IMG/VR virus record: IMGVR_UViG_2576861193_000004
Coordinates: 1-64,000 of that record
DNA: 64,000 bases
DNA from: a virus
Taxonomy: Duplodnaviria; Heunggongvirae; Uroviricota; Caudoviricetes
Direction: 5' to 3' (one strand)
This document shows positions 1 to 25,979 of this stretch, in pieces. Position numbers and translations under genes: made by a program. The notes beneath the pieces were generated by a model, which did no database searches, was not told the DNA's origin, and saw only the letters and a list, made by a program, of their open reading frames with translations. Each line of letters opens with the position of its first letter. The stretch's first letter is position 1.

Positions 1-53
1 GCCAGTAATGGGTTAAGTGATAACAGGTGTCTGGAAATATAGGGGCGAATCCA

Positions 54-767
54 ATGAAATTTGTTAAAAAAGCTTTAACGTTTATAGCTGTTATTTTAAT
101 CTTTAAAGCTGTATTTTACTTTTTTTACAAAGTCAATCGGTACGACAATAAGAATCTGTTAACAGAGAGTTCGTCTGTACAGACCTCGCACACAGAAAGA
201 ACCACATCCTCTGCACTGCCTGCACCAGGCTATCATAGGTATGTTATAGGATACGATATAAGTGTTGAGTTGCCTGAAAAATGGTCTTTATTGTCTCATA
301 CTGAAATCAGTGAGATAAAGAATAAATCTGCTACTATCGCGGGTTCTCCAAGCTCCACAACACTTGCAGCAAACGCTAACAAAGATGCCAAATTTAATGA
401 TGGCATTTTTAGAGCAAGCATCACTGATGCTAATTTCACTTCTGACGATTTAAAGTCGGCAAGCCCGGCTGAGTTGGACTCTGTTTGCAAGGAGATAAGC
501 AATAATATGAAGGTGTCCTTGCCGAAGATAGGGGCACGTTTAGCAAATGAAGCAAAATGTTCAATCTCAAAAATATCCGGCAAAGATGCTTTTTTGATTA
601 ATTATCAGCGTATAAATGCAGATAGTAATACTGTGTGGGATGTTTCTATCTATCAGGTTCCCATTAATGGGAAGTCGTTTATATTTACAGCATCGCGCAG
701 TACAGATGCACGTAAGGAAACCATAGAAGAACAAGAGCATATCCTTAACAGTATTAAATGGGATTGA
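54..767 (+). CDS. hypothetical membrane-anchored protein (moron-like)
   Basis: ORF 27..767; ATG at 54 preceded by AGGGG Shine-Dalgarno; the track start at 27 is GTG. N-terminal hydrophobic helix (ALTFIAVILIFKAVFYFFY), Ser/Thr-rich remainder, followed by a hairpin terminator. No recognisable family. Confidence 0.5.
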   Translation: MKFVKKALTFIAVILIFKAVFYFFYKVNRYDNKNLLTESSSVQTSHTERTTSSALPAPGYHRYVIGYDISVELPEKWSLLSHTEISEIKNKSATIAGSPSSTTLAANANKDAKFNDGIFRASITDANFTSDDLKSASPAELDSVCKEISNNMKVSLPKIGARLANEAKCSISKISGKDAFLINYQRINADSNTVWDVSIYQVPINGKSFIFTASRSTDARKETIEEQEHILNSIKWD

Positions 768-773
768 TTCTAA

Positions 774-806
774 GGAAAGCCTACTTAACAAGTGGGCTTT
801 TTTATT
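774..806 (+). terminator. rho-independent terminator candidate after the first gene
   Basis: Imperfect GC-containing stem (agcctac / gtgggct) followed by a T-run (tttttatt) immediately downstream of the stop codon. Confidence 0.45.
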
Positions 807-916
807 CTGGTTCCGCTGACTAATAAATTTATCAGCAGTAATGATGCGACTTCATTCTTCCTGAATATGCAGATCATTTTCGATCTTCCACAGATCTATG
901 AATCGCCACGGATAAT

Positions 917-1111
917 TTAGACACTTCCGAGCCGTTGATAATACTGGTTTTCATATTCTGTCGGTGACATCTGATCGCTGGAACCATGCCGACGCTTACT
1001 GTTATAAAACATTTCGATGTAATCAAAAATATCGCTGCGGGCTTCTTCCCGCGTTCCGTAGATCTTTTTCTTTATCCGTTCGCGTTTCAACCAGCAAACA
1101 GTAGATGAAAA
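917..1111 (-). mobile_element. IS3-family transposase (OrfB) C-terminal remnant
   Basis: Minus-strand translation gives ...GTREEARSDIFDYIEMFYNSKRRHGSSDQMSPTEYENQYYQRLGSV*, matching the conserved C-terminal pattern of IS3-family DDE transposases (iFdYIE-FYN-RRHs-SP-E); the frame is closed just upstream, so only about 65 codons remain. Confidence 0.5.
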
Positions 1112-1210
1112 CTACAGATATACCTGTAGCCACTGCCATCAGATAGAGTTTGATCATGTGTTTTCCTATGTGGCTATTGTGTGTAGATGATAAGTAGGTG
1201 CTTATATATT

Positions 1211-1245
1211 TTCAAGGTATAAAGGCGTCCATTCGGACGCCTGAA
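1211..1245 (-). terminator. terminator candidate downstream of the recombinase gene
   Basis: Hairpin aggcgtcc-attc-ggacgcct (1223..1242) just after the minus-strand stop at 1248; only a moderately U-rich tail on the minus strand. Confidence 0.4.
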
Positions 1246-1247
1246 AA

Positions 1248-3587
1248 TTAATCTTCTAATTCATCTGTCGGTGATGTCTTCTCGCGCCTGTCATCTATTG
1301 CCTGTAACGCAGCAATGATTTCAGCTAATGGCTTCTCCCGGTACATCTCGACGATCTGTGATTTGGTGTATTTCTTCTCGCCAATTTCCACACGCCCGCT
1401 GGCGCTCTTGGGCAGGTATCCTTCCTCCAGCATGTATTCGACCAGAGACTCGACGACGTCCAGCCCGCGAGTCGGGTCGAAGTAGAATTTCCATGAGCAT
1501 TTGCCAAACGGAGGCGCGACTTTGTTTTTAATGCACTCGGCGCCAACGTCCTGTCCGATCTTCTCTTTGCCATCCTTCATGACGGATGCACCCAGACGGA
1601 TGCGCACCGACGCGTAGAACTTCGGAGAGTCGCCACCCGGAGACGTAGTCGGATCGCCAAACATCACACCAATTTTGGTACGCACCTGGTTCAAGAAGAT
1701 GATGCACGCGTTGTACTTACGCGCCCAAAGCGCCAGAGTAGGGAAGTTCGCACTTGTCGCGCGCGCCAGCGCCGTGTTGTCGTTCATGTTCAGCTGATCT
1801 TTGTCCTTCGCAGTGCCTTCTGCCATCTTGTCGAACTTCTCAGCCTTCGAGTTCGGAACCATCGACGCCAGAGAGTCGGCTACGATGCAGATAGGGGCTG
1901 TTTCCGGAATAAGCTCTTCGTCGCGCACCAGCTTGAGGATTGTGCCGATCAGCTCTACGGAGTCTTCGAAGGTATCCGGCTGTTTGTAGACCCACTGACC
2001 GTCGTCTTCGTCGGCGTTCAGTCCGTTCGCTACCGCCAGACCAACGTCGAAACTGTTTTCGTGGTCAAGGAATACGGCCAGACCATCCTGTTTTTGTGCT
2101 GACACCATCGCAGCCGTCGCGAGGAATGTGTTGTGGCTGATAATCCCGTTAGACCAGAAAGAGTGTGTTTCCGGCATCGCTACGTCGAACGTTGGTGCTT
2201 CACCTTCCTCAATAGCCACGACTTCGTCGTAGAACAAGTTAGAGTCAATTACCGCTGCCAGTTGTGCAAACAGATGCTCGTTAAAACGATTCTTTCTGCC
2301 AATGAAGGAGACATAGATTTCTCGCAGTTTGTCTATTCCGACACGATCGCCGCGGCCAATAACGTGATCTACCAGAACGTAGTCTTTACGAGAGGTCTTG
2401 GTGAGTGACTCGTAGAGTGATTTCACTAAGCCGCTGATGTGCGGAACGTAGCCTAAATAAGTGCGGTCAAAACTAATGTCCCGTTTGGTTGCCACTGCTA
2501 AACGAGCCGGAGACTCGAACCCAATCGTTGACAGGAAAAGGTCGTAGTTAGAGCCACTGAATGACAGCCGGTAATATATGTTTTTATAACCTGCGACGTG
2601 TTTTTCAGAGATAGTTGACGTAATCCCCAGATTCAGGAGCATGAGGCGAATTTGCTGTAGCAGCAGCCCACTCGCGCTCACAACCTCAATGCAGCGACCA
2701 TCATTGACGTGGCATTCCAGCTCAAAGTAGCCGCGAAGGAATGCAATTTGAGCCTCGCTATTGGCGCGACGCACACTCAACGGAACCTGCTTGCCAGCAG
2801 CTTTCTCATACTCCAGACCATATTCTTTAAAAAGCAGCGAACGCACCTCTTTGCTAAACAGCACATGGTCTTCCGAGCCGTTATGTTTTCTCGTAACTGG
2901 CATCTTGTCTGATACCAGCGAAATGAGGCGGTAGTACTCATCCTTGATGAATGGATCTGTGTTAGAAACATGCACAGAATTTTCAGAGGCCACGTATCCG
3001 TCAGCAATTAAATAGCCCATCAGTTTTGCGATATTGGCATCCAAGTGCTGATCGCCGAATTGATGTGTGCCAACCATTGAAGGAATCGTGTCGCCTACAC
3101 TGATTTTTTCAGCATGTCGCCAGACGACATTACCTAAGTCGTCAACCACACGGATTGGGTGACGGAACGTAGCCTCGATATAACCGCCTGATGCCAGCTT
3201 AATACGCTTGAATTTGCGACGGTTGTTCCATGTCAGGTGTGAGGTCTTCTCTATCACGCCATTTTCATTGATGAGTCCAACGTTATGCTCTACATCGCGA
3301 GTAGTGCATGTCGCTTTGTACCCTTCAATCTCAAACAACTCTTTCACTGTTACCATTCCACGCTCCGTCAGCAGCATGGTGTCTGCGGTAACACATTTCC
3401 CCGCGCTTGGTGGCCCGAATACTTCTACGATACGACCACATGGGAAACCGCCATCGTAACGACCGGAAATAGCTTTGTTTAACGGAGGAAAGCCTGTGTC
3501 AATCCAATGAGTTACTTTCTGAATTTCGTCGTTGCTACCGATTTTCTTTTTCAGAGCAAGTGCCAGTGCGGATTTTCCTTTTGCCAT
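1248..3587 (-). CDS. RecA/UvsX-like recombinase interrupted by an intein
   Basis: N-extein ...GRIVEVFGPPSAGK then C-extein TFLATAAMVSAQKQDGLAVFLDHENSFD... reconstitutes a RecA P-loop and core (compare E. coli RecA [20 protein letters not shown]...). Spliced length about 357 aa. Confidence 0.9.
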   Translation of the reverse strand: MAKGKSALALALKKKIGSNDEIQKVTHWIDTGFPPLNKAISGRYDGGFPCGRIVEVFGPPSAGKCVTADTMLLTERGMVTVKELFEIEGYKATCTTRDVEHNVGLINENGVIEKTSHLTWNNRRKFKRIKLASGGYIEATFRHPIRVVDDLGNVVWRHAEKISVGDTIPSMVGTHQFGDQHLDANIAKLMGYLIADGYVASENSVHVSNTDPFIKDEYYRLISLVSDKMPVTRKHNGSEDHVLFSKEVRSLLFKEYGLEYEKAAGKQVPLSVRRANSEAQIAFLRGYFELECHVNDGRCIEVVSASGLLLQQIRLMLLNLGITSTISEKHVAGYKNIYYRLSFSGSNYDLFLSTIGFESPARLAVATKRDISFDRTYLGYVPHISGLVKSLYESLTKTSRKDYVLVDHVIGRGDRVGIDKLREIYVSFIGRKNRFNEHLFAQLAAVIDSNLFYDEVVAIEEGEAPTFDVAMPETHSFWSNGIISHNTFLATAAMVSAQKQDGLAVFLDHENSFDVGLAVANGLNADEDDGQWVYKQPDTFEDSVELIGTILKLVRDEELIPETAPICIVADSLASMVPNSKAEKFDKMAEGTAKDKDQLNMNDNTALARATSANFPTLALWARKYNACIIFLNQVRTKIGVMFGDPTTSPGGDSPKFYASVRIRLGASVMKDGKEKIGQDVGAECIKNKVAPPFGKCSWKFYFDPTRGLDVVESLVEYMLEEGYLPKSASGRVEIGEKKYTKSQIVEMYREKPLAEIIAALQAIDDRREKTSPTDELED
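2130..3395 (-). mobile_element. intein (about 422 aa) with LAGLIDADG homing-endonuclease domain inserted in the recombinase P-loop
   Basis: Begins with Cys right after GPPSAGK, ends with HN followed by Thr (+1); internal LMGYLIADGYV motif; boundaries computed from residue positions 65 and 486. Confidence 0.8.
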
Positions 3588-3589
3588 GA

Positions 3590-3862
3590 TCAGGCTCCTT
3601 TTGTTTCGTTGATTCGTTTTAAAGCGGCGGATTCGTCGAATACAATCGCATCGTGATTAAGGAGTCTGGATACACGAGCGAGGATTTTTACGACCTGCTC
3701 GCTGACTAATCCAAACTCGCGATCTGTCGCTTTCATTCCGGCAGCGCCTAGAATTGACGGCAGTGCGATGACAGCGTACTCACCGTGATAAAAGACAATC
3801 TCTTTTGCCAGTTGGGTGGGGGTGGTTGTAGCGCCATTAATAATCGATTTAAGCATTAGCAA
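3590..3862 (-). CDS. hypothetical protein
   Basis: 90-aa ORF between the flap endonuclease and recombinase genes on the same strand; no recognisable motif. Confidence 0.4.
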   Translation of the reverse strand: MLMLKSIINGATTTPTQLAKEIVFYHGEYAVIALPSILGAAGMKATDREFGLVSEQVVKILARVSRLLNHDAIVFDESAALKRINETKGA

Positions 3863-4800
3863 TACCTTTCGAATGGAAGAACAAACACTTCAAGGTCTTC
3901 AAGGAACGAACGGAAATTCAGCTCGTAGCACAGTTGCTCGAATGCTTTCACGTCACGATTGCCTTTGATTGTTTCGATTTCGGTAGGCGGAAACTTCGTC
4001 TCAATCAGGTTCATTAGCGTGATGTTTCTCTTGAACGCTTCGAGCATTCGACAGCCTGTTTTCTCGTTGAAGGCATTCTTCGCTAGTTTGTTGAAGGCGG
4101 TCTTATGGCGTCCTTTGTCAACCACGATTGAGCCGTCGTTGATGCCGCGTACCATCGTTGCGACACTTCCCCATTCATGCAGCAGCTCTTTCGCACCGCC
4201 AGCACCAATGCCACCAACACCGCTAATGTTGTCCGATTTATCGCCTTGTAATGCTTTTGCTTCCAAAAATGCGCGAGGAGTAGCGAATCCTGTCAGCTCC
4301 GCAAATTGCTCAAAATTAACCTGCTTGTTTTTGGCGTCTTCGCGCAGGCTTACCCAGCTTACGTTTTCGCGAACTAACTGAAGCCAGTCGCTATCGCCTG
4401 TTAACAGATAGATGTGTTCAACGGTTGGCTGCGGTGCCATGCGGGATACCAGCAGCCCGGCCAGATCATCCGCTTCTGCATCTTTTGCAATGAGTTGGGT
4501 AACTCCAAGCGCGGTCATCATTTTGAGGATGTATGGCTTCTGGATAGCAAAGCCTTCCTTCATCTTTTTCATATCAGGATCGTCGTCGCGATTTGCCTTG
4601 TAGTCCGGGTAAAAGTCGCGACGCTTGTCACTAAATCCATCCCAAAGAATCATAGGTCGGGCATGGAGGATGGAGGCATAACGACGGACGTTCTTAACAA
4701 AGCCGAAAGCAGCCTGTACTTCCATTTCGCCGTTGTGCAATTTGTCAGATTGTTGGTGGTAATAACCCAGGCTATTGCCATCTACGAAGAGATAATTCAC
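3856..4800 (-). CDS. 5'-3' exonuclease / flap endonuclease (FEN, T5 D15 / RNase H-like)
   Basis: VDGNSLGYY N-terminal motif, GDSDWLQL, and H3TH motif GVGGIGAGGAKELL. Start moved to GTG at 4800 (GGAAGG Shine-Dalgarno 9 nt upstream) because the track start at 4851 overlaps the upstream terminator hairpin. Confidence 0.85.
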   Translation of the reverse strand: MNYLFVDGNSLGYYHQQSDKLHNGEMEVQAAFGFVKNVRRYASILHARPMILWDGFSDKRRDFYPDYKANRDDDPDMKKMKEGFAIQKPYILKMMTALGVTQLIAKDAEADDLAGLLVSRMAPQPTVEHIYLLTGDSDWLQLVRENVSWVSLREDAKNKQVNFEQFAELTGFATPRAFLEAKALQGDKSDNISGVGGIGAGGAKELLHEWGSVATMVRGINDGSIVVDKGRHKTAFNKLAKNAFNEKTGCRMLEAFKRNITLMNLIETKFPPTEIETIKGNRDVKAFEQLCYELNFRSFLEDLEVFVLPFERYC

Positions 4801-4815
4801 CGGTACATTCCTTCC

Positions 4816-4850
4816 AAAAAGTAAGGCGTCCGTAGACGCCTTACTGGTCA
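4816..4850 (-). terminator. rho-independent terminator after the SSB gene
   Basis: Perfect 10-bp stem gtaaggcgtc / gacgccttac with a 4-nt loop, followed on the minus strand by TTTTT. Confidence 0.7.
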
Positions 4851-4860
4851 CGTAATGGGA

Positions 4861-5889
4861 TTACAGAGAGTCCAGCTCTCTCAGTAGGTCATCCAGACCT
4901 TCATCTTCCGTCGCAGATGCGGTTGCTACAGATGTCGCTGCGACTGCTTCAGACTCTTTGACTGATACGGCAACGGCAGCGGAACTTGCCTCTGGTTTAA
5001 ATTCAGTTTCAACGGCACGGAGGATTTCTTCATCAACCAGACTGGTTGGTTCAGAAGCCGGTGTGTGCGCGGTTGCTACAGCCGTCGCTCCTTCTGTATG
5101 ACCAGTGACAGAGCCAAATCCAGGTAGTGCCGCAGCCGATGTTTTCGCGGTTGAGGAAATTGCTGGTGCAGATGCTGCGGCAGTTGGTGCAGCGATGCCA
5201 ATCAGACGACCCATAGTGCGAACTGTCGACAGAAGACGAGTTTCATCAGCCTGATTTGCGTATGCGATCAGATCATGCTGGGTGTTCCAGAATTTATCTT
5301 CGATATCGCCTTTGTAGACTTTACGCTTAGGCGAGACGTCATATTTGGTATCGCGACCAGAGCCAGTACGTTTAATCAGGAATGCGTAGCCTTCCTCTTT
5401 GCTCAGTGGATTGCCGATATCATCAGCGATGTCTTCGGTGATTGCTTTGCAGATATCATCGAATACAGTAGACGGCAGCTCGATTAACTGGCATTTCTCA
5501 GCATCTGCGAAATCCTCACGAGCAGAAAGAATGCCGTTGACCAGGTAGCGAGGAGTGGCACGCATTTGACCGATGCGTTCTTCCATTGCTTTGTTACCCT
5601 TGTGACGAGCGCGACCTTCCATCACCATTTCGCATAGCTGACAAGCGCGACCATGAGTATGTTGCTCACAAATATAAGCGATGGTTGCTTCTTTACCTTC
5701 CTCGTTCTGATACTTAACGTAGTGCATACCGAAAGTCTGGAAGAACTTACCGTTTGGGTCGTCCTTATTCGGGAAGATACGGATATAGTTGACGCCATCT
5801 TTTAAGCGAGTCAGATCAACGTTGTTACCACGTTTGGCGGCAATGTCTTCACGAGTTTTGTTAAGCAAATCAAGTAATGTCTTAGACAT
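4861..5889 (-). CDS. single-stranded DNA-binding protein, T4 gp32-like (putative)
   Basis: YIRIFPNK resembles the gp32 IRFLPSK region; Cys/His cluster CEQHTHGRACQLC (possible zinc site); Ala/Ser-rich linker and acidic C-terminus DEGLDDLLRELDSL typical of SSB tails. By-eye similarity only. Confidence 0.5.
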   Translation of the reverse strand: MSKTLLDLLNKTREDIAAKRGNNVDLTRLKDGVNYIRIFPNKDDPNGKFFQTFGMHYVKYQNEEGKEATIAYICEQHTHGRACQLCEMVMEGRARHKGNKAMEERIGQMRATPRYLVNGILSAREDFADAEKCQLIELPSTVFDDICKAITEDIADDIGNPLSKEEGYAFLIKRTGSGRDTKYDVSPKRKVYKGDIEDKFWNTQHDLIAYANQADETRLLSTVRTMGRLIGIAAPTAAASAPAISSTAKTSAAALPGFGSVTGHTEGATAVATAHTPASEPTSLVDEEILRAVETEFKPEASSAAVAVSVKESEAVAATSVATASATEDEGLDDLLRELDSL

Positions 5890-6006
5890 GTGTTTCTCCT
5901 TGTTGTGATTTGGCCGATGGCGCTATGCGCGTTGGGCTTTCGTTCATTCGTGGCTCTTTCGAGCTGTTAAATGATAGATCAGCACTTACTTATTATCTAT
6001 CAAAAA

Positions 6007-6438
6007 TCAACGGGGAGTAATAAAGCGTTCAGAGCCTAATCGCTCTAATTCAACGATGGCCATCTTTGACGCCTGAACGATCATGTCTCGGCGATGCGAA
6101 AAGGCGGCGACAGCATGTTTGTATATGTCTGCGATGTGCCGTGCTTCATCCAACTTCTGCCGTTTAGACAGATACTGTGGGTTTGTTTTAACCTTAGCGT
6201 CCAGTACAGACTCGTTGAACTTAATGCCGTTCATACTCAAGTTCTTACGCTCTGTGTCGTATAGCTTTGCTTCAACAGCTTCAAGGTTAAGTTTTGCCTC
6301 TGCGACATCTCGATCTGCCTGCGCTAGTTTTGACCCATACTCCATTAAAAGCCGTGGCTGTTTACGCCATACTTCCTCAAGGTTGTCGCGGTCGAACTCC
6401 AGATCGGCCATGATTTTAGAAAAAATATCAGTGTTCAC
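6007..6438 (-). CDS. hypothetical protein, possible UvsY-like recombination mediator
   Basis: 143 aa, predicted helical; position next to the recombinase, FEN and SSB genes and weak pattern resemblance to T4 UvsY (137 aa). Not verified. Confidence 0.35.
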   Translation of the reverse strand: MNTDIFSKIMADLEFDRDNLEEVWRKQPRLLMEYGSKLAQADRDVAEAKLNLEAVEAKLYDTERKNLSMNGIKFNESVLDAKVKTNPQYLSKRQKLDEARHIADIYKHAVAAFSHRRDMIVQASKMAIVELERLGSERFITPR

Positions 6439-6645
6439 TCTAATAGGTTCCTACTTATAAAATCTGTATCAATTATATCAAACAGAGAACGGGTTTATGG
6501 CGTCATGTCAACTTTGTTCAGGGGAAGATATTGAGATCACCGAAGATAATTAGTTGTCTTATTTTGGTAAGCTGTGCTGACCATCTTTAGGTCACATACA
6601 TGAGATGGATGGGGTGTGGCATGAACGGATGAAATTCAGTCGCCG

Positions 6646-6674
6646 TTGACAGATGTCAACACTGTGAATAGAAT
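6646..6674 (+). promoter_or_regulatory. sigma70-type promoter with a palindromic overlap (TTGACAgaTGTCAA)
   Basis: TTGACA (6646..6651), 17-nt spacer, TAGAAT (6669..6674), then GGAGG Shine-Dalgarno and ATG at 6692; the -35 lies within a perfect 6-bp inverted repeat that could be an operator. Confidence 0.5.
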
Positions 6675-6691
6675 ACCATTATCGGAGGCGA

Positions 6692-6916
6692 ATGAAGCAA
6701 CATCCGAATAAGCATATTCAAGCAGCCATTGACTATGCATTAAGTAAAGGCTGGATCTGGGTAGCTGCTGGTGGTGCTGCACATTGTTTTTGCAGACTGC
6801 GATGCGGTAATCCAGAAGGTGAACACAAAACTCACCAAATGAGCGTATGGTCGACTCCGGGTAATCCCGAAAACCATGCCAAACAGATCAAACGAATGGT
6901 TGATCGTTGTAAATGA
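6692..6916 (+). CDS. small moron protein, weakly HicA-like (YcfA family?)
   Basis: 74 aa with KGW...GGAAH...P...IKRMV pattern loosely resembling HicA toxins; has its own promoter and terminator. Family assignment is tentative. Confidence 0.3.
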   Translation: MKQHPNKHIQAAIDYALSKGWIWVAAGGAAHCFCRLRCGNPEGEHKTHQMSVWSTPGNPENHAKQIKRMVDRCK

Positions 6917-6920
6917 TTTC

Positions 6921-6945
6921 AAGGCGGCATTAGCCGCCTTTTGCA
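6921..6945 (+). terminator. rho-independent terminator
   Basis: Hairpin aaggcggc-atta-gccgcctt followed by TTTG, 5 nt after the stop of the 74-aa gene. Confidence 0.55.
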
Positions 6946-6976
6946 GAAACTGTCCAACTATCTTCAAAGGAAAACT

Positions 6977-7540
6977 ATGGCGCTTTATAACTTCACTCTG
7001 ACGCTCTCAGGCGTATCGTATGAGACGGAAGGACTGGAAGACGCGCTGTACCAAAACGGCTGTGACGATGCGCTAATTTGCGCATATGGAAACTCCGTCT
7101 ATGTAGAATTTGACCGCGAAGCACAATCACTTGATGCAGCTATCGCATCTGCGGTCGACAATATTGAATCAGCCGGTATCGGTGCAATTGTTGAATCCGT
7201 CGACTCGGCTCTTGTGGGCTTAAGCGATATCGCGGAACTGACAGACCTGTCTCGCCAGGCAGTGGCGTTGCTCAAAGACGGTAAGCGCGGAAGCGGCGAC
7301 TTCCCTTGCCCTGTACAACGCATAAAAGGCCAGTCTCCTCTCTGGGATTGGGCTGATGTGGCTGAATGGCTCATGAATAACGGACGACTTAAAGAGGGCG
7401 ATCAAATTGTCCAAAATGCCCGAACTTTGAGTAAATGGAATCTGGCGCTTCGAAACAGCGTCTCGAAAGATTTCAACGAAATAGAGCAAATTGCGGAGAA
7501 ACTGATTAAACGCCGCAAAGATATTGCGAAATGCGCATAA
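6977..7540 (+). CDS. putative DNA-binding protein with central helix-turn-helix
   Basis: ATG at 6977 with AAGGA Shine-Dalgarno (track start 6941 is TTG); segment GLSDIAELTDLSRQAVALLKDGKRG looks like an HTH; N-terminal domain of unknown fold. Confidence 0.4.
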   Translation: MALYNFTLTLSGVSYETEGLEDALYQNGCDDALICAYGNSVYVEFDREAQSLDAAIASAVDNIESAGIGAIVESVDSALVGLSDIAELTDLSRQAVALLKDGKRGSGDFPCPVQRIKGQSPLWDWADVAEWLMNNGRLKEGDQIVQNARTLSKWNLALRNSVSKDFNEIEQIAEKLIKRRKDIAKCA

Positions 7541-7656
7541 TGATGCCCGCCAATTGGCGGGCATCTGTTCTCTGTAAAGGTGTCTGGCATCGTCTGGTTC
7601 GTTAACGTTTACTAAACCAATGGTGACAAAAATTAGTTATCTTTGAAAAATAAAGG

Positions 7657-7685
7657 TTGCATGAAAAGAAGGGGTATGCGTTAAT
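7657..7685 (+). promoter_or_regulatory. cspA-type promoter
   Basis: TTGCAT -35 and GTTAAT -10 separated by 17 nt, AT-rich upstream element; closely resembles the E. coli cspA promoter (TTGCAT / CTTAAT). Confidence 0.5.
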
Positions 7686-7691
7686 AGCATC

Positions 7692-7869
7692 GTTGGTTTG
7701 CAAGACAGACCTTATGTAAGCAGTTTTAGTAAAGCAGTCTCAGTTCAGTGTTATCTTCTGATTTCCCTTCTTCGTGAGTCTCCTCCTTAAGTGCCTAAGT
7801 AAGTCCCAATCTATACAGATCAAATTCTCGCCGCACTATGTGGCTCACAAAATTAAGAAGGTAATATCT
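7692..7869 (+). promoter_or_regulatory. long cspA-like 5' untranslated leader (candidate RNA thermosensor / cold box)
   Basis: About 178-nt leader with segments resembling the E. coli cspA leader (CAGACC, AAAGCAG, GTAGTAA, AAGGTAATA before the ATG). Compared from memory. Confidence 0.45.
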
Positions 7870-8085
7870 ATGTCTAATAAAATGACTGGTTTAGTAAAAT
7901 GGTTTAACTCTGATAAAGGCTTTGGCTTTATTTCTCCTGCTGATGGCAGTAAAGATGTTTTTGTACATTTTTCGGCAATTCAGAGTAATAATTTCCGCAC
8001 TTTGGAAGAAGGCCAGCAGGTCGAATTCTCTATCGAGAATGGGGCTAAAGGCCCAGCAGCAGCAAATGTCGTTGCTCTAAGCTGA
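7870..8085 (+). CDS. csp: cold-shock protein, CspA family
   Basis: 70 aa [38 protein letters not shown]... with RNP1/RNP2 motifs, near-identical in pattern to E. coli CspA/CspB/CspG; AAGAAGG Shine-Dalgarno 7 nt upstream. Confidence 0.95.
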
Positions 8086-8173
8086 TTCAACGCTGATGAT
8101 CCTCATTTCTACAATAACGAAGACGGTGTAAGCCTGAGTGGATAGATTTGTAGGATTGTACAAGTTGAATAAA

Positions 8174-8203
8174 TTAGCATGGTAAGGCCATGCTAATTAA
8201 ATC
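8174..8203 (+). terminator. hairpin terminator candidate after csp
   Basis: Stem ttagcatgg / ccatgctaa with taag loop, followed by TTAAAT. Confidence 0.4.
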
Positions 8204-8357
8204 GACACAACGGCCAGTTTATTCCATAAAAGTGAATTGCCCATTGTGGCGAAATGCGGGGTTGCCGCATGAATAGTCAAAGGCAGAAGCTAACTGCCGG
8301 CATGGCAAAACAAAGTGCGTAAGAGGAGTGACTTCCTCAACAAGCGCCATAATTCTT

Positions 8358-8390
8358 TATAAACCCGCCAACAGGCGGGTTTTCTTTATT
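8358..8390. terminator. bidirectional rho-independent terminator between csp and the polymerase gene
   Basis: Hairpin cccgcc-aaca-ggcggg flanked by an A-run upstream and ttttctttatt downstream; serves the plus-strand csp unit and the minus-strand polymerase gene ending at 8389. Confidence 0.6.
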
Positions 8391-11300
8391 ACTTATTTAT
8401 TGTCTCCGCGATATCAGCCAGAATGGCCTCCAGTCGCTCTCCTTCTTCCGGTCGGAAGTACAGGATATTCGGGTTAAATCCGTAGAAGACGGTTGCATCA
8501 AGCTCTGGGAAGTACTCCTTACGACCAATCAGATCTGATGGTTTACTCTTATTGTTAAATAGTGCGGTTGAACGACTACCACACGTCAAAATGTAGGTTG
8601 GTCGTACAAGATTAATTTCTTCCCGCATAAAGTCTGTGAACTGGCCTATCTCGTCTTTGGTATAGTCTTTCTCTTTGTCCTTAACCTTCTTACAAACACC
8701 CGTGACATAAAGATCGCCCATGCGCAGATCTCCAACTGTCAGTAGTTTTGCCTTAAAGTCGTCGTATCCGTTCTCCATGAAGTAGCCGGTACGAGCGTCA
8801 TTGCCGTTCGCATTGTCCAGAATGATCATGATTTTGGGTTTAATACCAATAGTCGGGCGTATCAACTCCTCACCCAAGCCCATTTCAGCCGCCATACGTG
8901 TCATGAGTACGTTGATTTCGGCAGAACGCTTAGGATTCATTTCGAACGGACGTGATGCTTTAACAGCGTCAATGATGAGATTGCCCATCAGCTCAGCCTG
9001 GTCGCGCAGTCGTTCAGGATCAGTTGCTGGCAGACTGCCTGGCTCAATTGACGCAAAAGCCCCTACTTTATGAAGCGACTCGCGTACACGACTGTTACAT
9101 GCACGCTTCTCGACCGCTTCATCGAATTGTGCCACTGACTCGAATTTGCCACCAACTTTCTCACGCGCACGCATAATTGCCTGACAACCATTTTCAGAAC
9201 AGCCTTTCACAGCAGAGAATGGCGCATACAGTGCCTGACTGCCGTCTTCGAGTGTGCGGATCTCAATTCGGTTAGATGACACATTAACGTCTGGTGGCAA
9301 TACGCGAATGCCATAGGTCAGCGCATCCTTCACCAGCCCCTGATGCTTATCCTCGCCCAGAATGGTGAGCGCAGCTGCGAAGAACTCAGCAGGGTAGTGC
9401 GTCTTTAGCCACATAGACTGATAACTGATTAAAGAATAAGCAACGGAGTGTGATTTATTGAAGGCATATCCACCGAACTTCTCAAAGGCGTCCCATATTT
9501 CTTGGGCTTTTTCCTTACTGAGACCTTCTTGTTCAGAGACGATCTCCACGTAGTCTATGCCGTCACTAATAGCCTCGCTGTAGCTTCTACGCTTACCGTC
9601 TGAGCAATCCAGTTTTGCGTGTTTGTGAACCTCTACAGTACCTCCATTTTTGAGTGACAGTGTCACCCAGCCTGCTTGTGCTCGTTCTACAAAATCGCTG
9701 CCGATCGCTTTCATCTTATCCATGTTCTTTTTACCGATAGCGGAACGCAGAGCGTCTGCTTCGGCCATAGAGAACCCGGCAAGTACTCGGGAACTTTGCA
9801 TGATTTGTTCCTGATAGAGCAAAACACCATTAGTCTCCCGGGTGACTTCCTCAAGACGCGGATGAATTGAATGTGGAGCCATGAAGCCTTTGGCCACGGA
9901 GACATAGTCGTCCAACATGCCGGATTGGATCGGGCCAGGTCGGAAGAGTGCGGTCGTGGCGACAACGGTTTTAAAGCTCATTGGCTCAATGCCACCGCCT
10001 AGATCTTTAAGCAGCTTGCGCATGGGGCCGGACTCCAGCTGGAATACGCCCTGTGTATACCCTGCAGCAAAACCATCCAGCACCTTGCGATCTTCAAGAG
10101 AAATGGCATCAAGATTGATATCTTCACCTGTGTTCTCTTTTATGTAGCGTTTTGCACTATCGAGCAAATCGAGAGTTGCCAGGCCAAGCACGTCCAGCTT
10201 AATTAGGCCCATAGCCTCGCAGTAACGCTTATCAAATGCGATACAACGCGCGTCACCACGGCGCTCAACCGGTGTACGTTCTGTCAGAGGAACACCTGCT
10301 ACAATCATCCCTGCCGCATGTCTACCAAAGCCACGCATAAGGCTTTGTAACTTGCAGGCTGCATTGAATGCATCAGGATATTTTGTTGCGTATTTGTCGA
10401 GACTTGCCAGTTGTTCGCGCAGCTCTTCCAATGGAAGGCTATCATCCTCGACGTTCTTCAGTTCTTTTGATACCGCCATATCTGCGGACTCCACACCATA
10501 AATACGAGCGGTGTCACGTAGTGCAGAGGCTGCGCCCAGGTAGGTGAAGTTCGGAATGCCTGCAACGTAATCTTCGCCGTAGCGTTCATTCAGATACTCG
10601 ATCACCTCATGGCGACGTGCCTGGCTGAAGTCCAAATCCGCATCTGGCAAGTCGAGACGCTCAGGGTTGATGAAACGTTCAAACAGAAGACCGTGACGGA
10701 TAGGGTCGACGTTGGTTATGCCTATGCACCATGCCACCAAAGAGCCAGCGGAGGAACCACGACCAGGCCCGACAGGAATGCCAGTTTCACGGCTGTGATT
10801 CATCAGATCGCGTACCATCAGGAAGTAACCACAAAATCCCAGGCGAGTAAGCGTGTCCATTTCGTACTTAAGTCGCTCAACATAAACCCTGTTCTCAGAA
10901 GCCGGTGGTGTGTATCCAAACTCTTTTGTGGTAAGACGTTTACGCAGCCCTGCAACAGCCAGTTTCATCAGCGTTGCAGGTTCGTCGTCTGCCATCTTGG
11001 GCAGTGCTGGTGGCAATTCATGCCAGCGCCATGTACAGGCTTCGATAATGGAGTCCTGCGTTGTTGAGGCCATTGCAGCTGTTACCGGCACATCCATGCG
11101 AACGGAGAAGGCTTTAAGCGCCTCAAGGAGATGGCGGCGACCATTGACGGCGTTATCTCGCTGGTGGGGTATACGCAGACGATGCGGCTGGTCGATTTTT
11201 ATGTTGTTCGTAACCATGTGCGCAATGTCTTTAATGTCTGCATCGTCGATCGATTCGTAATAAGCGGGATAGAACGCTACTGGCTCTATTTTCAGTGCGC

Positions 11301-11895
11301 TGGCTACTTTCATCGCTCGGACGTTAATCTGGTCGTAGAATGGGGTAGGGTGCGGATAAACCACGCTATAGAAGTTGTCTTTCCCGCCCGCTGTAATCAG
11401 TGAGCTTATGATTTTTGCAAAATCGTTGCGTTGGAACACGCTACCGATGTCGGAAGTGAGCAGGATGATGTTGCCTTTGGCATATGTAGAAACCAACTGT
11501 TCGAGCGAGAGACGCGGTACAAAGTAGAACTGTTCTCGTGTGTTGGCCACCGTCATTAGTTCGCAGATGTCGCGATATCCTTGCTCATTTTTAATTAGAG
11601 CGGTAAACGAGTAGTTACGTCCCCGCTCTAATGATTCCATACATCTCATAGATTCTTTAGCAAGTTTAGCCCGGTGCTCGTATGTGGGATCATCAACGAT
11701 ATTTAGTTTCACACCACAAATAACCGCCATGTCGTCACCAGCGGCACGTTGTAGTGGAATAACACTCGCAATATTCATGCTATCTGCTGAAATTACAGCG
11801 GTGTAGCCAGCTTCTCTGGCAATCTTCACCGCGTTTTCTGCTTTTAGAGCCGACTCCCCAAGTGAGAAGTCAGTTCGAACCATCAGTGCTTTCAT
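8389..11895 (-). CDS. dnaE: DNA polymerase III alpha subunit (DnaE-type replicative polymerase)
   Basis: 1168 aa; N-terminal PHP-like region, polymerase core motifs (e.g. GYAFNKSHSVAYSLISYQSMWLKTHYPAEFFAA) and a C-terminal OB-fold region aligning by eye with E. coli DnaE. Confidence 0.9.
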   Translation of the reverse strand: MKALMVRTDFSLGESALKAENAVKIAREAGYTAVISADSMNIASVIPLQRAAGDDMAVICGVKLNIVDDPTYEHRAKLAKESMRCMESLERGRNYSFTALIKNEQGYRDICELMTVANTREQFYFVPRLSLEQLVSTYAKGNIILLTSDIGSVFQRNDFAKIISSLITAGGKDNFYSVVYPHPTPFYDQINVRAMKVASALKIEPVAFYPAYYESIDDADIKDIAHMVTNNIKIDQPHRLRIPHQRDNAVNGRRHLLEALKAFSVRMDVPVTAAMASTTQDSIIEACTWRWHELPPALPKMADDEPATLMKLAVAGLRKRLTTKEFGYTPPASENRVYVERLKYEMDTLTRLGFCGYFLMVRDLMNHSRETGIPVGPGRGSSAGSLVAWCIGITNVDPIRHGLLFERFINPERLDLPDADLDFSQARRHEVIEYLNERYGEDYVAGIPNFTYLGAASALRDTARIYGVESADMAVSKELKNVEDDSLPLEELREQLASLDKYATKYPDAFNAACKLQSLMRGFGRHAAGMIVAGVPLTERTPVERRGDARCIAFDKRYCEAMGLIKLDVLGLATLDLLDSAKRYIKENTGEDINLDAISLEDRKVLDGFAAGYTQGVFQLESGPMRKLLKDLGGGIEPMSFKTVVATTALFRPGPIQSGMLDDYVSVAKGFMAPHSIHPRLEEVTRETNGVLLYQEQIMQSSRVLAGFSMAEADALRSAIGKKNMDKMKAIGSDFVERAQAGWVTLSLKNGGTVEVHKHAKLDCSDGKRRSYSEAISDGIDYVEIVSEQEGLSKEKAQEIWDAFEKFGGYAFNKSHSVAYSLISYQSMWLKTHYPAEFFAAALTILGEDKHQGLVKDALTYGIRVLPPDVNVSSNRIEIRTLEDGSQALYAPFSAVKGCSENGCQAIMRAREKVGGKFESVAQFDEAVEKRACNSRVRESLHKVGAFASIEPGSLPATDPERLRDQAELMGNLIIDAVKASRPFEMNPKRSAEINVLMTRMAAEMGLGEELIRPTIGIKPKIMIILDNANGNDARTGYFMENGYDDFKAKLLTVGDLRMGDLYVTGVCKKVKDKEKDYTKDEIGQFTDFMREEINLVRPTYILTCGSRSTALFNNKSKPSDLIGRKEYFPELDATVFYGFNPNILYFRPEEGERLEAILADIAETINK

Positions 11896-23375: not shown

Positions 23376-24629
23376 TTACGATAGCGCCTTAATGCCCAAA
23401 ACCTTGCTTTGCAACTCCAACTGTTTGGTATACGGTTTTGCCCGATAATAGGCTTTGATAATTTGTTCTGGCGTTGCATCGCCTGGGTCGAGTCCTTCCT
23501 CGCCCAAACATGCTACTTTGACATTAAGACCAATACTGGTCAGTCGCCTGGCTGCGGCCATAGTGTTGCGTATAGCTTGCTTTTCACTATCCCACATCAT
23601 GATCACATTACGTAATCCACGCGCCTTGAGCGTCAGGAACGCGCCCAACTGATCTTCTGCATCCTGAGTGGTGTTACCAGATAGATGCATCCCGAACGTT
23701 CCTATCGGTTCCACGTAATCACGTAATGTTTCTTCATCAAAAATAGCTCGTTTAACTCCCATAACATCGAACGCCCCCTCACAGACAACTACAGTCTGTT
23801 TGCCGACCGCATTATGGCCGTTGTAGAGAAACTTACCTGAAGCTGGAAGCTGCATAGGAAAGAGGTAGCGACGTTCAGCTGTACCGGTAATGTCTCGCCC
23901 CTGAAATGTCTTCATTACCCCATCCAGATCGTAAACCGGTATCAGTATTCGCATATCGAATATCTGTCCTTTAACCTGATCTGTATACGGATCTACATAA
24001 GCGTGCTTGCCTTCGACGCAGTATCGTAGGTCAAAATACTTTGCCATTTCAGGCGATATGTTTCGTTCAACCAGATAGTCTGGAAGACGGCCATCTATAG
24101 GAAGTTCGTAATGACGAGGGAGTGCAAGTGGTCCCTCTAACTCGACTGTGCTTGCAAGCACTATCTCTTCTTTCTTTGGTGCCCACCCCTGGGAAAGAAG
24201 GGCGTTCTGCACATATTCCTCGAACTGTCGTCGTGATTTGCCGCTGTAGTGCTTGAGGAAGACCAGCTTATTGAACTGAATCTCTTCGGGATGATCACCA
24301 GCGAAGCATTTACCGACGCCACTGGTCAGATTGAAATATACCTTCCAGTTGGAGCTGCCACATACCGGACACTCCTTGATATTCACTTCACGACCGCGAG
24401 TACTCACGCCTCCACGTCGATAAACGATACCTTCAGTATCCAACCATTGTTCAAAATCTAATTCGGTAATTAGCTCTTTCAGCTCGCTCACGATAATTCC
24501 ACTTTTAACAGGCAATATTGTGACCAACCTAAATGTTGATATAACATAAAGGCTCATGTGTTTTTCTTTTGTGGTTTGGCAAAAGAAAAGTTGTTTCACC
24601 AATGAATCAAGCGTGGAGGTGTTCTCCAC
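23376..24629 (-). CDS. dnaG: DnaG-type DNA primase (zinc-ribbon + TOPRIM)
   Basis: Zinc ribbon CPVCGSS...C..GDH, TOPRIM-like VVVCEGAFD; located directly downstream of the helicase gene. Confidence 0.8.
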   Translation of the reverse strand: MENTSTLDSLVKQLFFCQTTKEKHMSLYVISTFRLVTILPVKSGIIVSELKELITELDFEQWLDTEGIVYRRGGVSTRGREVNIKECPVCGSSNWKVYFNLTSGVGKCFAGDHPEEIQFNKLVFLKHYSGKSRRQFEEYVQNALLSQGWAPKKEEIVLASTVELEGPLALPRHYELPIDGRLPDYLVERNISPEMAKYFDLRYCVEGKHAYVDPYTDQVKGQIFDMRILIPVYDLDGVMKTFQGRDITGTAERRYLFPMQLPASGKFLYNGHNAVGKQTVVVCEGAFDVMGVKRAIFDEETLRDYVEPIGTFGMHLSGNTTQDAEDQLGAFLTLKARGLRNVIMMWDSEKQAIRNTMAAARRLTSIGLNVKVACLGEEGLDPGDATPEQIIKAYYRAKPYTKQLELQSKVLGIKALS

Positions 24630-24638
24630 GCTTATTTT

Positions 24639-25979
24639 TTAGGTAACGTCTAAGATTCGCTCAATGAAGCGCATTTGTTCGAGGTTTTGTTTAACGCGAA
24701 TGCTGATCCCTCCCTGCTGGTTACGTGAACCAGCAAAGTAGAGACGAGCCTCTCCTTTCGCTTCTTCTTCTTCTGTTTTGTTGATCGTTATTACCAGGTC
24801 AGCAATACGTACTTTTTCGATGTTGTCGGCAGCGTGCATCATTGTGGCAACTTCTGACGCGCCACCTTCACGGTTTGTCTGCGATGCCGTGATCCCAGCA
24901 ACGTTATGCTTGTCATAAAGAGCACGTAAATCGGTGTAGATACTACGAATGTTGGCGCGATCATCACGAAGGTCATAACTGGCACGCATCAAATCTGCGT
25001 AGTCGACAACAACCATGTCAGGTACCATGCCGTTGGCTTTCATGCTGTTAAGCATACGGTCCAGATCTGCCGGTGACATACTTCCTGACGGACGCTCAAC
25101 CACCCACAAACTACCAATCCCCTTCGTGGCTCCCAACTCTGCCAACTTACGATGAACCTCATCGCGCCGTTCCACCAGCTTGGACATTTCTGTCTCCGAC
25201 AATCTTGCATCAAAACGGTCGGATAAAATGGTGGTGTGAACCTCCAGCGAGAGATACAGAACATTGTAGCCAGCAAGCGTTGCGTTTATGGAAAACTCAC
25301 CCATTGCGGTCGATTTACCGGATTTAGCGAACCCCATGAAGAGCACCATTTCACGCTTCGCCCAGCCTTTTTGGTACAGCAACCTATCGAGCAGAGGGAG
25401 TCCAGTTGTAATGCTGTTTGGCACATACTCCTCTGAAGCCTCATATTCACGCGCTTTCAATCGCTCACTTGCGGAGGTGTAGTAGTCATAGATTCCGGTC
25501 GCTTCGTTCGATCCAATCTGCTGAACCTTGGCCATGATTGCCATCGCCCCCTGAAAGTCGCCCTTCTCTTTCAGTTCAGCAGCCTTAATCAGAGCATCAT
25601 CAAACGCTACGCTTTTTGCGAAGGTTGATACCTGGTCAACCATGTACGAGGTATCAGACAATTTTTCTGCAAGGATGCGCTTAAACGCAGCAACAACATC
25701 GGCGAATAGTTCCTCACGGATAGTCTTATCGCGTTTCGCACGCTTAAGCATATCCAGAATCGCAGATGAAGAGGGCGCGCTCTTGTACATACGGTAATAG
25801 CCCGAAACCATATTAACCAATATGGCATTGGCCGCATTGGCAAATTGGCTAGGTACAACCAGATCTCCAGCACGAGTAAGAAACTCGTGATCACGACAAA
25901 AATAGGCCGTCAATCTGTTCTGAAAATCTTCATCAAACTCTTCGGACAGCCCGCGTCCTGTATGGCAAAGTTCGGTCAT
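24639..25979 (-). CDS. dnaB: DnaB-family replicative helicase
   Basis: RecA-like C-terminal domain with Walker A GFAKSGKST and hexameric-helicase motifs; 446 aa. Confidence 0.85.
   Translation of the reverse strand: MTELCHTGRGLSEEFDEDFQNRLTAYFCRDHEFLTRAGDLVVPSQFANAANAILVNMVSGYYRMYKSAPSSSAILDMLKRAKRDKTIREELFADVVAAFKRILAEKLSDTSYMVDQVSTFAKSVAFDDALIKAAELKEKGDFQGAMAIMAKVQQIGSNEATGIYDYYTSASERLKAREYEASEEYVPNSITTGLPLLDRLLYQKGWAKREMVLFMGFAKSGKSTAMGEFSINATLAGYNVLYLSLEVHTTILSDRFDARLSETEMSKLVERRDEVHRKLAELGATKGIGSLWVVERPSGSMSPADLDRMLNSMKANGMVPDMVVVDYADLMRASYDLRDDRANIRSIYTDLRALYDKHNVAGITASQTNREGGASEVATMMHAADNIEKVRIADLVITINKTEEEEAKGEARLYFAGSRNQQGGISIRVKQNLEQMRFIERILDVT

Follow-up and report, generated by a model that had tools for sequence, protein, structure and literature searches.

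The 64,000-nucleotide window analysed here (positions 1 to 64,000 of the IMG/VR virus record IMGVR_UViG_2576861193_000004, a member of the Caudoviricetes) is assigned to an SSU5-type phage-plasmid and carries, within positions 1248-6438, five closely spaced and co-oriented minus-strand open reading frames (ORFs). They encode a UvsY-like protein, a gp32-family single-stranded DNA-binding protein (SSB), a 5'-3' exonuclease of the flap endonuclease (FEN) type, an 88-aa protein and a RecA-like recombinase with an intein. We interpret this cassette as a recombination and replication-accessory operon with a T4-style set of SSB, mediator, recombinase and FEN, at a probability of roughly 0.7. The features of the cassette are as follows.

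6438-6007, minus strand: UvsY-like mediator candidate, 143 aa
5889-4861, minus strand: gp32-family SSB, 342 aa
4851-3856, minus strand: 5'-3' exonuclease/FEN, 331 aa from a GTG start, or 314 aa when started at 4800
3856-3590, minus strand: 88-aa protein, in a frame open from 3862 with a conserved ATG start at 3856
3587-1248, minus strand: RecA-like recombinase, a 779-aa precursor (357 aa spliced)
2130-3395, minus strand: intein of 422 aa with a LAGLIDADG domain, inside the RecA-like gene

The RecA start lies 2 nt past the end of the small ORF, the ATG of the small ORF overlaps the FEN stop, and the remaining intergenic gaps are 9-60 nt (FEN to gp32, depending on the FEN start) and 117 nt (gp32 to UvsY-like). 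An earlier, sequence-only reading of this DNA had given the sizes of the 342-aa and 143-aa ORFs exactly. It had placed the whole set at 3590-6438, an interval that does hold four of the genes; the recombinase lies outside it, at 1248-3587.

At the DNA level the region shares 96.7% identity with Escherichia phage Cyrano (OV696614) and 83% with Salmonella phage SSU5, and the leftmost 1.3 kb of the window are 100% identical to E. coli plasmids of about 113 kb, e.g. pCP53-113k (typed IncFIB). Because of these identities, the window is taken to be part of an SSU5-type phage-plasmid of about 110 kb from E. coli, with a lambda-type tail tip. Cyrano is the plasmid pLF82 of E. coli LF82, is inducible with ciprofloxacin and forms siphovirus particles (PMC9928086). 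The name "lambda-like siphovirus" that the sequence-only reading had used was rejected as a classification, the lambda-type character being limited to the tail-tip genes.

The 143-aa protein is predicted to have the fold of the UvsY protomer (PDB 4ZWQ), with four helices including two long antiparallel ones (fold search on a monomer prediction), and its relationship to UvsY is visible only by fold search and with a broader family profile. Neither Pfam nor NCBIfam gave a match to the protein, the PDB gave chance matches only to the single sequence and to a close-family profile, hhalign of the single sequence against T4 UvsY returned 0.2%, and the match to PHROG 231 ("UvsY-like") was weak (E 1.9e-4). 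A profile of the wider family (43 members) was then aligned to a UvsY reference alignment consisting of T4 and seven diverse phages with a T4-type UvsY; the T4 sequence used agrees at 100% identity with T4 records. This comparison gave an hhalign probability of 92.9% (E 3.8e-7, 104 colinear columns) and a score of 46.2, against 11.1±2.1 (maximum 17.1) for 100 column-shuffles and 8.8 for the reversed alignment. Residues D13, D17 and L21 of T4 UvsY are aligned on D12, D16 and L20 of the 143-aa protein, and K58 of the KARL motif on R64, a position held by R or K in 15/15 close homologues; in the broad-family alignment a conserved Arg stands one position off K58. The basic KARL residues K58 and R60 of UvsY serve binding to single-stranded DNA (ssDNA) (PMC3016280). 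Because fold, profile-profile match and aligned residues point to UvsY without a Pfam match, the 143-aa protein is assigned, on sequence and model, to the UvsY superfamily, beyond the limits of the Pfam UvsY family, and it is a candidate UvsY-like recombination mediator. The earlier proposal of a UvsY-like gene at this position thus survives the profile searches that had been put forward as its check.

So does the proposal of a gp32-like SSB. For the 342-aa protein, the match to Pfam PF08804 (gp32) has an E-value of 1.4e-66 and 224.9 bits (cut-off 26.8) across profile positions 1-208 of 208, a model on which T4 gp32 scores 226.4 bits. The protein also matches phrog_1192 (SSB) at 3.7e-115. Its pairwise BLAST alignment to T4 gp32 has an E-value of 0.063, and a phmmer search of the protein against the PDB gave no match. 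As pairwise similarity to T4 gp32 is weak, the protein of this SSU5-type element is called a divergent member of the gp32 family, assigned through the Pfam profile. Its OB/Zn core is followed by a linker rich in Ala, Ser and Thr and, at the C-terminus, by the acidic tip LDDLLRELDSL. Four SSU5-like gp32 sequences keep a His/Cys3 pattern (H56, C74, C83, C86), for which the ligands in T4 are H64, C77, C87 and C90. Its CxxC and the Cys before it align with T4 gp32; the His is offset in the MAFFT alignment and was assigned by inspection. Proteins of the gp32 family bind cooperatively through a basic N-terminal B-domain with the KRKST "LAST" motif; the N-terminus of the window protein, MSKTLLDLLNKTREDIAAKRGN, is basic, and a clear LAST motif is not recognisable in it. 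At the other end, EDEGLDDLLRELDSL aligns with DDTDLDDLLNDL of T4, the DD being invariant throughout the alignment, and the tip is aligned to DLDDLLNDL of T4 gp32, with LDDLL common to both. In T4, the acidic C-terminal domain of gp32 is the docking site of UvsX and UvsY (PMC3016280).

The recombinase had been described as UvsX-like, a label that fits its role and not its family. It matches Pfam RecA (PF00154) at 1.1e-36, and the spliced protein matches RecA in the PDB at 1e-35, as against 4.5e-9 for the UvsX structure 9gbg, 7.4e-6 for T4 UvsX (3io5) and about 1e-5 for RadA. Its score on TIGR02012 (recA) is 156.8 bits, under the equivalog cut-off of 325.3, and we assign it by these scores to a RecA-like phage clade which is not orthodox bacterial RecA yet stands far nearer to it than to UvsX. 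The sequence-only reading had also made no mention of the intein. The intein, residues 65-486 of the precursor, interrupts Walker A (GPPSAGK|C…HN|T), and splicing in silico restores GPPSAGKT and a 357-aa protein with 96% identity and no gaps to the intein-less RecA of SSU5, against which the junction is exact. The insertion matches the Pfam models Intein_splicing (1.1e-11) and LAGLIDADG_3 (6.1e-18) and has the hallmarks C65, TFRH (block B TxxH) and SHN486 followed by T487; it is classified from these motifs as a class 1 intein with a LAGLIDADG homing-endonuclease domain, and splicing is predicted. The RecA genes of this window, Cyrano, PhiR41_1 and vB_KpnS_p4727 contain the intein; those of SSU5 and CMS-2020a lack it. 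RefSeq labels the whole precursor "LAGLIDADG family homing endonuclease".

The FEN protein matches 5_3_exonuc_N (PF02739; 2.2e-24, 86.4 bits, cut-off 34.3) and 5_3_exonuc (PF01367; 5e-12, 46.6 bits, cut-off 40), and its best PDB matches are the T5 D15 exonuclease 1exn (3e-15) and Pol I. The acidic metal-binding motifs VDG, WD/GD, EADD, GDSD and GDxxDN are kept in the alignment with 1exn, and the protein appears nearest to 5' nucleases of the T5/Pol I type, not specifically to T4 RNase H. Cyrano and RefSeq start the gene at 4800 (314 aa). The 88-aa protein gave no family match and no informative fold match, and its ORF is conserved only in enterobacterial SSU5-like elements.

The gene order recombinase, small ORF, FEN, SSB and small helical protein, as read earlier from the window, is seen in relatives too. 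Read in the direction of transcription, UvsY-like, gp32, FEN, small ORF and RecA follow one another in relatives whose UvsY-like proteins are about 50% identical, and gene order is likewise kept in SSU5, Cyrano and more distant relatives. For a census, 158 distinct viral loci were collected via two family alignments, translated in six frames and searched with hidden Markov models iterated from the window proteins. All 105 loci that extend 6 kb or more beyond the UvsY-like gene on its downstream side (first set 57/57, second set 48/48) carry UvsY-like, gp32, FEN and RecA genes in this order and on one strand, at G+C contents of 37-66%. Median identities to the window proteins in the first set are 33% (UvsY-like), 28% (gp32), 36% (FEN) and 48% (RecA), so the order of the cassette is maintained through deep divergence. 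Since the same order is found in SSU5, Cyrano, distant relatives and 105/105 loci, the operon arrangement is not due to chance. A DnaE gene lies upstream of the cassette, within 10 kb, in 44/44 first-set loci with enough upstream sequence.

Several observations weigh against a dedicated recombination operon, the first of them concerning the mediator. Fifteen of 15 close members of the 143-aa family have no match to PF11056 (Pfam UvsY) at E<=10, and a distant member, P0083, matches it at E 0.038, below the cut-off. The close-family profile reaches an hhalign probability of only 45% against the UvsY alignment (E 2.2e-4, colinear), one of the two basic KARL residues is matched (R60 falls on N66), and helical hairpins are common folds. 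The 143-aa protein might accordingly be a generic helical-hairpin protein, e.g. a structural, scaffolding or regulatory coiled coil, similar to UvsY by convergence and without recombinase loading; given the shuffle-controlled match of the wider family, we consider this improbable. The census loci form one broad viral lineage and are not independent events. Promoter and terminator counts over 1000-6800 are no higher than in shuffled sequence (6 vs 6.6 and 6 vs 5.5, respectively), for which reason we infer the limits of the operon from spacing alone.

Finally, gp32 and FEN may serve mainly replication. The cassette would then be chiefly a replisome accessory, in which gp32 is the replicative SSB, FEN removes Okazaki primers for DnaE, RecA and the 143-aa protein act only in fork restart and repair, and there is no dedicated T4-style toolkit. 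That the cassette comes immediately downstream of DnaE, both in the window and in the 44 related loci, suits this explanation, as do DnaB and ligase (and a primase, per the Cyrano annotation) in the same element and the fact that gp32 and RNase H belong to the replication proteins of T4 itself (PMC3016280). RecA and the UvsY-fold protein are nevertheless invariant in the cassette, presynaptic filament assembly is the sole known role for such a pair, and the explanation overlaps with a recombination operon; we think it unlikely. The recombination operon is further supported by the curators of Cyrano, whose annotation is independent and identical.

A third alternative is that the RecA-like protein is mainly a regulator, e.g. 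a co-protease acting on host LexA or on a phage repressor to control induction, with strand exchange secondary. Induction of Cyrano by ciprofloxacin (PMC9928086) and the persistence of RecA-like genes in the SSU5 supergroup (PMC7969092) would agree with such a role. It leaves the invariant linkage to gp32, FEN and the UvsY-fold protein unexplained, however, and the genes stand in the replication block, several kb from the repressor (CYRAN_45 in Cyrano), so that we give it very little credence.

For the preferred recombination operon, we infer how the proteins interact physically, how the recombinase is loaded and what the set does biologically, as follows. The gp32-family SSB would coat ssDNA arising at forks or from end resection. 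UvsY itself works as a stable hexameric or heptameric ring that wraps ssDNA and loads the recombinase onto gp32-ssDNA; the UvsY-like protein, too, would probably be an oligomer when it binds and remodels this gp32-ssDNA complex, and it would load the phage RecA-like recombinase, which would first splice out its intein and then form presynaptic filaments leading to strand invasion. FEN would clear 5' flaps or RNA primers beyond the reach of the phage DnaE. Host RecFOR recognises the tail of host SSB; as a non-bacterial SSB of its own would exclude host RecFOR, the phage would need its own mediator, and loading would be independent of host RecFOR and SSB. The placement of the cassette beside DnaE points to recombination-dependent replication, to fork repair and to lytic concatemer formation, processes that the set would most likely support together with DnaE, DnaB, ligase and a primase known by its Cyrano label only. 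The model for this scheme is T4, where gp32 coats ssDNA and UvsY remodels the gp32-ssDNA complex and passes the ssDNA to the recombinase (PMC3016280).

In comparison with the T4 system (UvsX, UvsY and gp32, with RNase H/FEN), the same four functional roles are represented, and both systems have a RecA-superfamily recombinase and a FEN-family 5' nuclease. The SSB shares the Zn-type core and the LDDLL acidic tip, and the mediator is colinear with UvsY, about 140 aa long and predicted to have its fold. The "T4-style recombination set" of the sequence-only reading therefore stands for the core of recombinase, SSB, mediator and FEN and does not extend to the families of all its parts: here the recombinase is RecA-like, the FEN is of T5/Pol I type, and the mediator is outside Pfam UvsY, with only K58 matched. 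The genes form one operon here, whereas T4 recombination genes are scattered round the T4 genome. The elements differ as well, this one being a temperate siphovirus phage-plasmid of about 110 kb with DnaE and T4 a virulent myovirus with a family-B polymerase.

The bacterial RecA and RecFOR/SSB system is alike in that the recombinase is closest to bacterial RecA and that in both a mediator loads, or would load, the recombinase on SSB-coated ssDNA. It differs in having a homotetrameric OB SSB where the element has one of gp32 type, and in using RecF, RecO and RecR, to which the mediator here has no relation; the phage RecA-like protein also scores well under the TIGR02012 cut-off (157 vs 325 bits). 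Cyrano has the same gene order and is annotated RecA, Exonuclease, "SSB T4 gp32-like" and "UvsY recombination mediator" (ENA); the small ORF is unannotated there. SSU5 also has the same order, with a RecA lacking the intein. The UvsY-like gene is "hypothetical" in SSU5 and in RefSeq plasmid records, and the gp32 gene is "hypothetical" in RefSeq plasmid records and a single-strand DNA-binding protein in the RefSeq record of SSU5.

Among 1.84 billion cluster representatives searched with a UvsY-like profile, 3,526 matched at E≤1e-3 and 557 at E≤1e-10, a family size of at least 3,500 clusters at 50% identity. In a phage collection, P0083 matches 28 records of 84-122 kb (27/28 above 100 kb), which are SSU5-likes, Rhizobium phages such as RHEph10 and B1VFA, and Pseudomonas phages such as nickie and hairong. 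Among the annotated records so matched the UvsY name is found only in Cyrano, and all others read "hypothetical". Long forms, with an acidic low-complexity N-terminal extension of at least 100 aa that starts D[DE]EL[DE]ALMAELE, make up 51/147 of the top family representatives and 58/78 loci of the second census set (loci L094-L171, e.g. L094 at 6160-7236; representatives P0084, P0088 and P0114). The gp32 gene beside them ends in ELDDLLGDL, the same tip as in T4 and window gp32. The long form may be a loader with a mimic of the gp32 tail: the N-terminal tip of many UvsY-like members, DDELDALMAELE, is similar to the C-terminal tail of gp32 (ELDDLLGDL), a hint that the two might compete for one docking site.

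On these data the family of the 143-aa protein may form a UvsY-superfamily branch of very large size and with next to no annotation, one that would load RecA-type, not UvsX-type, recombinases on gp32-coated ssDNA. With gp32, FEN and RecA in an operon beside DnaE, it would be a hallmark of a broad clade of siphoviruses and phage-plasmids of about 100-120 kb in enterobacteria, Pseudomonas, Rhizobium and many uncultured hosts, a generalisation whose chances we rate as even.

Separately, a canonical Pfam UvsY was observed in a similar neighbourhood (584-8750) of the unrelated Vibrio phage 2.058.O (MG592662; 101 kb). That module consists of a gp32-family OB protein without the Zn cysteines, a 5'-3' exonuclease, a helicase, UvsY and an SF1 helicase. 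More than one form of UvsY/gp32 module therefore exists outside T4-like phages.

The remaining replication and virion genes of the element that bear on its context are listed here.

8389-11895: DnaE polymerase, upstream of the cassette
24639-25979: DnaB-type helicase
Same element: ATP-dependent ligase
Same element: tail-tip proteins M, L, K and J, lambda-type

The context given in the sequence-only reading (DnaE, DnaB/DnaG and a lambda-type virion module) is upheld for DnaE, a DnaB-type helicase and the M, L, K and J tail-tip genes. The ORF at 23376-24629 had zero Pfam matches, and its primase label comes only from the Cyrano annotation.

Adjoining the RecA stop region, positions 1-1247 contain a 246-aa hypothetical ORF (27-767, plus strand) and the C-terminal remnant of an IS3-family transposase (917-1090, minus strand). 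This segment is 100% identical to pCP53-113k and relatives. Because membrane-protein genes hold the position in Cyrano, the segment looks like a replacement mediated by an insertion sequence.

A divergent gene pair on the plus strand, 6692-6916 and 6941-7540, lies between the cassette and dnaE and is labelled HicA toxin and HicB antitoxin in Cyrano. Pfam gave no HicA match for the first gene and a chance-level match for the second, for which the PHROGs label is "excisionase and transcriptional regulator". A strong sigma-70-like promoter match (TTGACA-17-TAGAAT, 6646-6674, plus strand) is located ahead of the pair. The segment of about 850 nt between the HicB-like gene and dnaE contains an ORF for a CspA-type cold-shock protein (7774-8085, plus strand); Cyrano has an unannotated gap of equal size there, and the segment is missing from pCP53-113k, in which dnaE is directly next to the pair.

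No paper describing the cassette was found in the literature on UvsY in phage-plasmids or the SSU5 group, and a survey of phage-plasmids in Nucleic Acids Research names only "RecA-like proteins", as persistent genes (PMC7969092). The idea is known to specialists via the Cyrano record and is missing from RefSeq and most phage records, so this work is mostly confirmation and modestly novel. Added here are backing for the UvsY call from structure and profiles, the correction of the recombinase to RecA and not UvsX, the intein, and the breadth of the family with its strict synteny. For annotation practice, the homing-endonuclease name of the RecA precursor in RefSeq is wrong, and the gp32 and UvsY-like genes still stand there as hypothetical.

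Phage-plasmids of the SSU5 type are frequent among Enterobacteriaceae of clinical and livestock origin, and resistance genes can be part of their cargo. If the proposed roles are true, recombinase loading independent of RecFOR and host SSB would affect the replication, repair, mosaicism and gene exchange of these phage-plasmids. The UvsY/gp32 mediator logic would then not be limited to T4-like virulent phages or to UvsX, and the cassette would provide a second, evolutionarily distant system for testing how ssDNA is handed over from SSB to recombinase.

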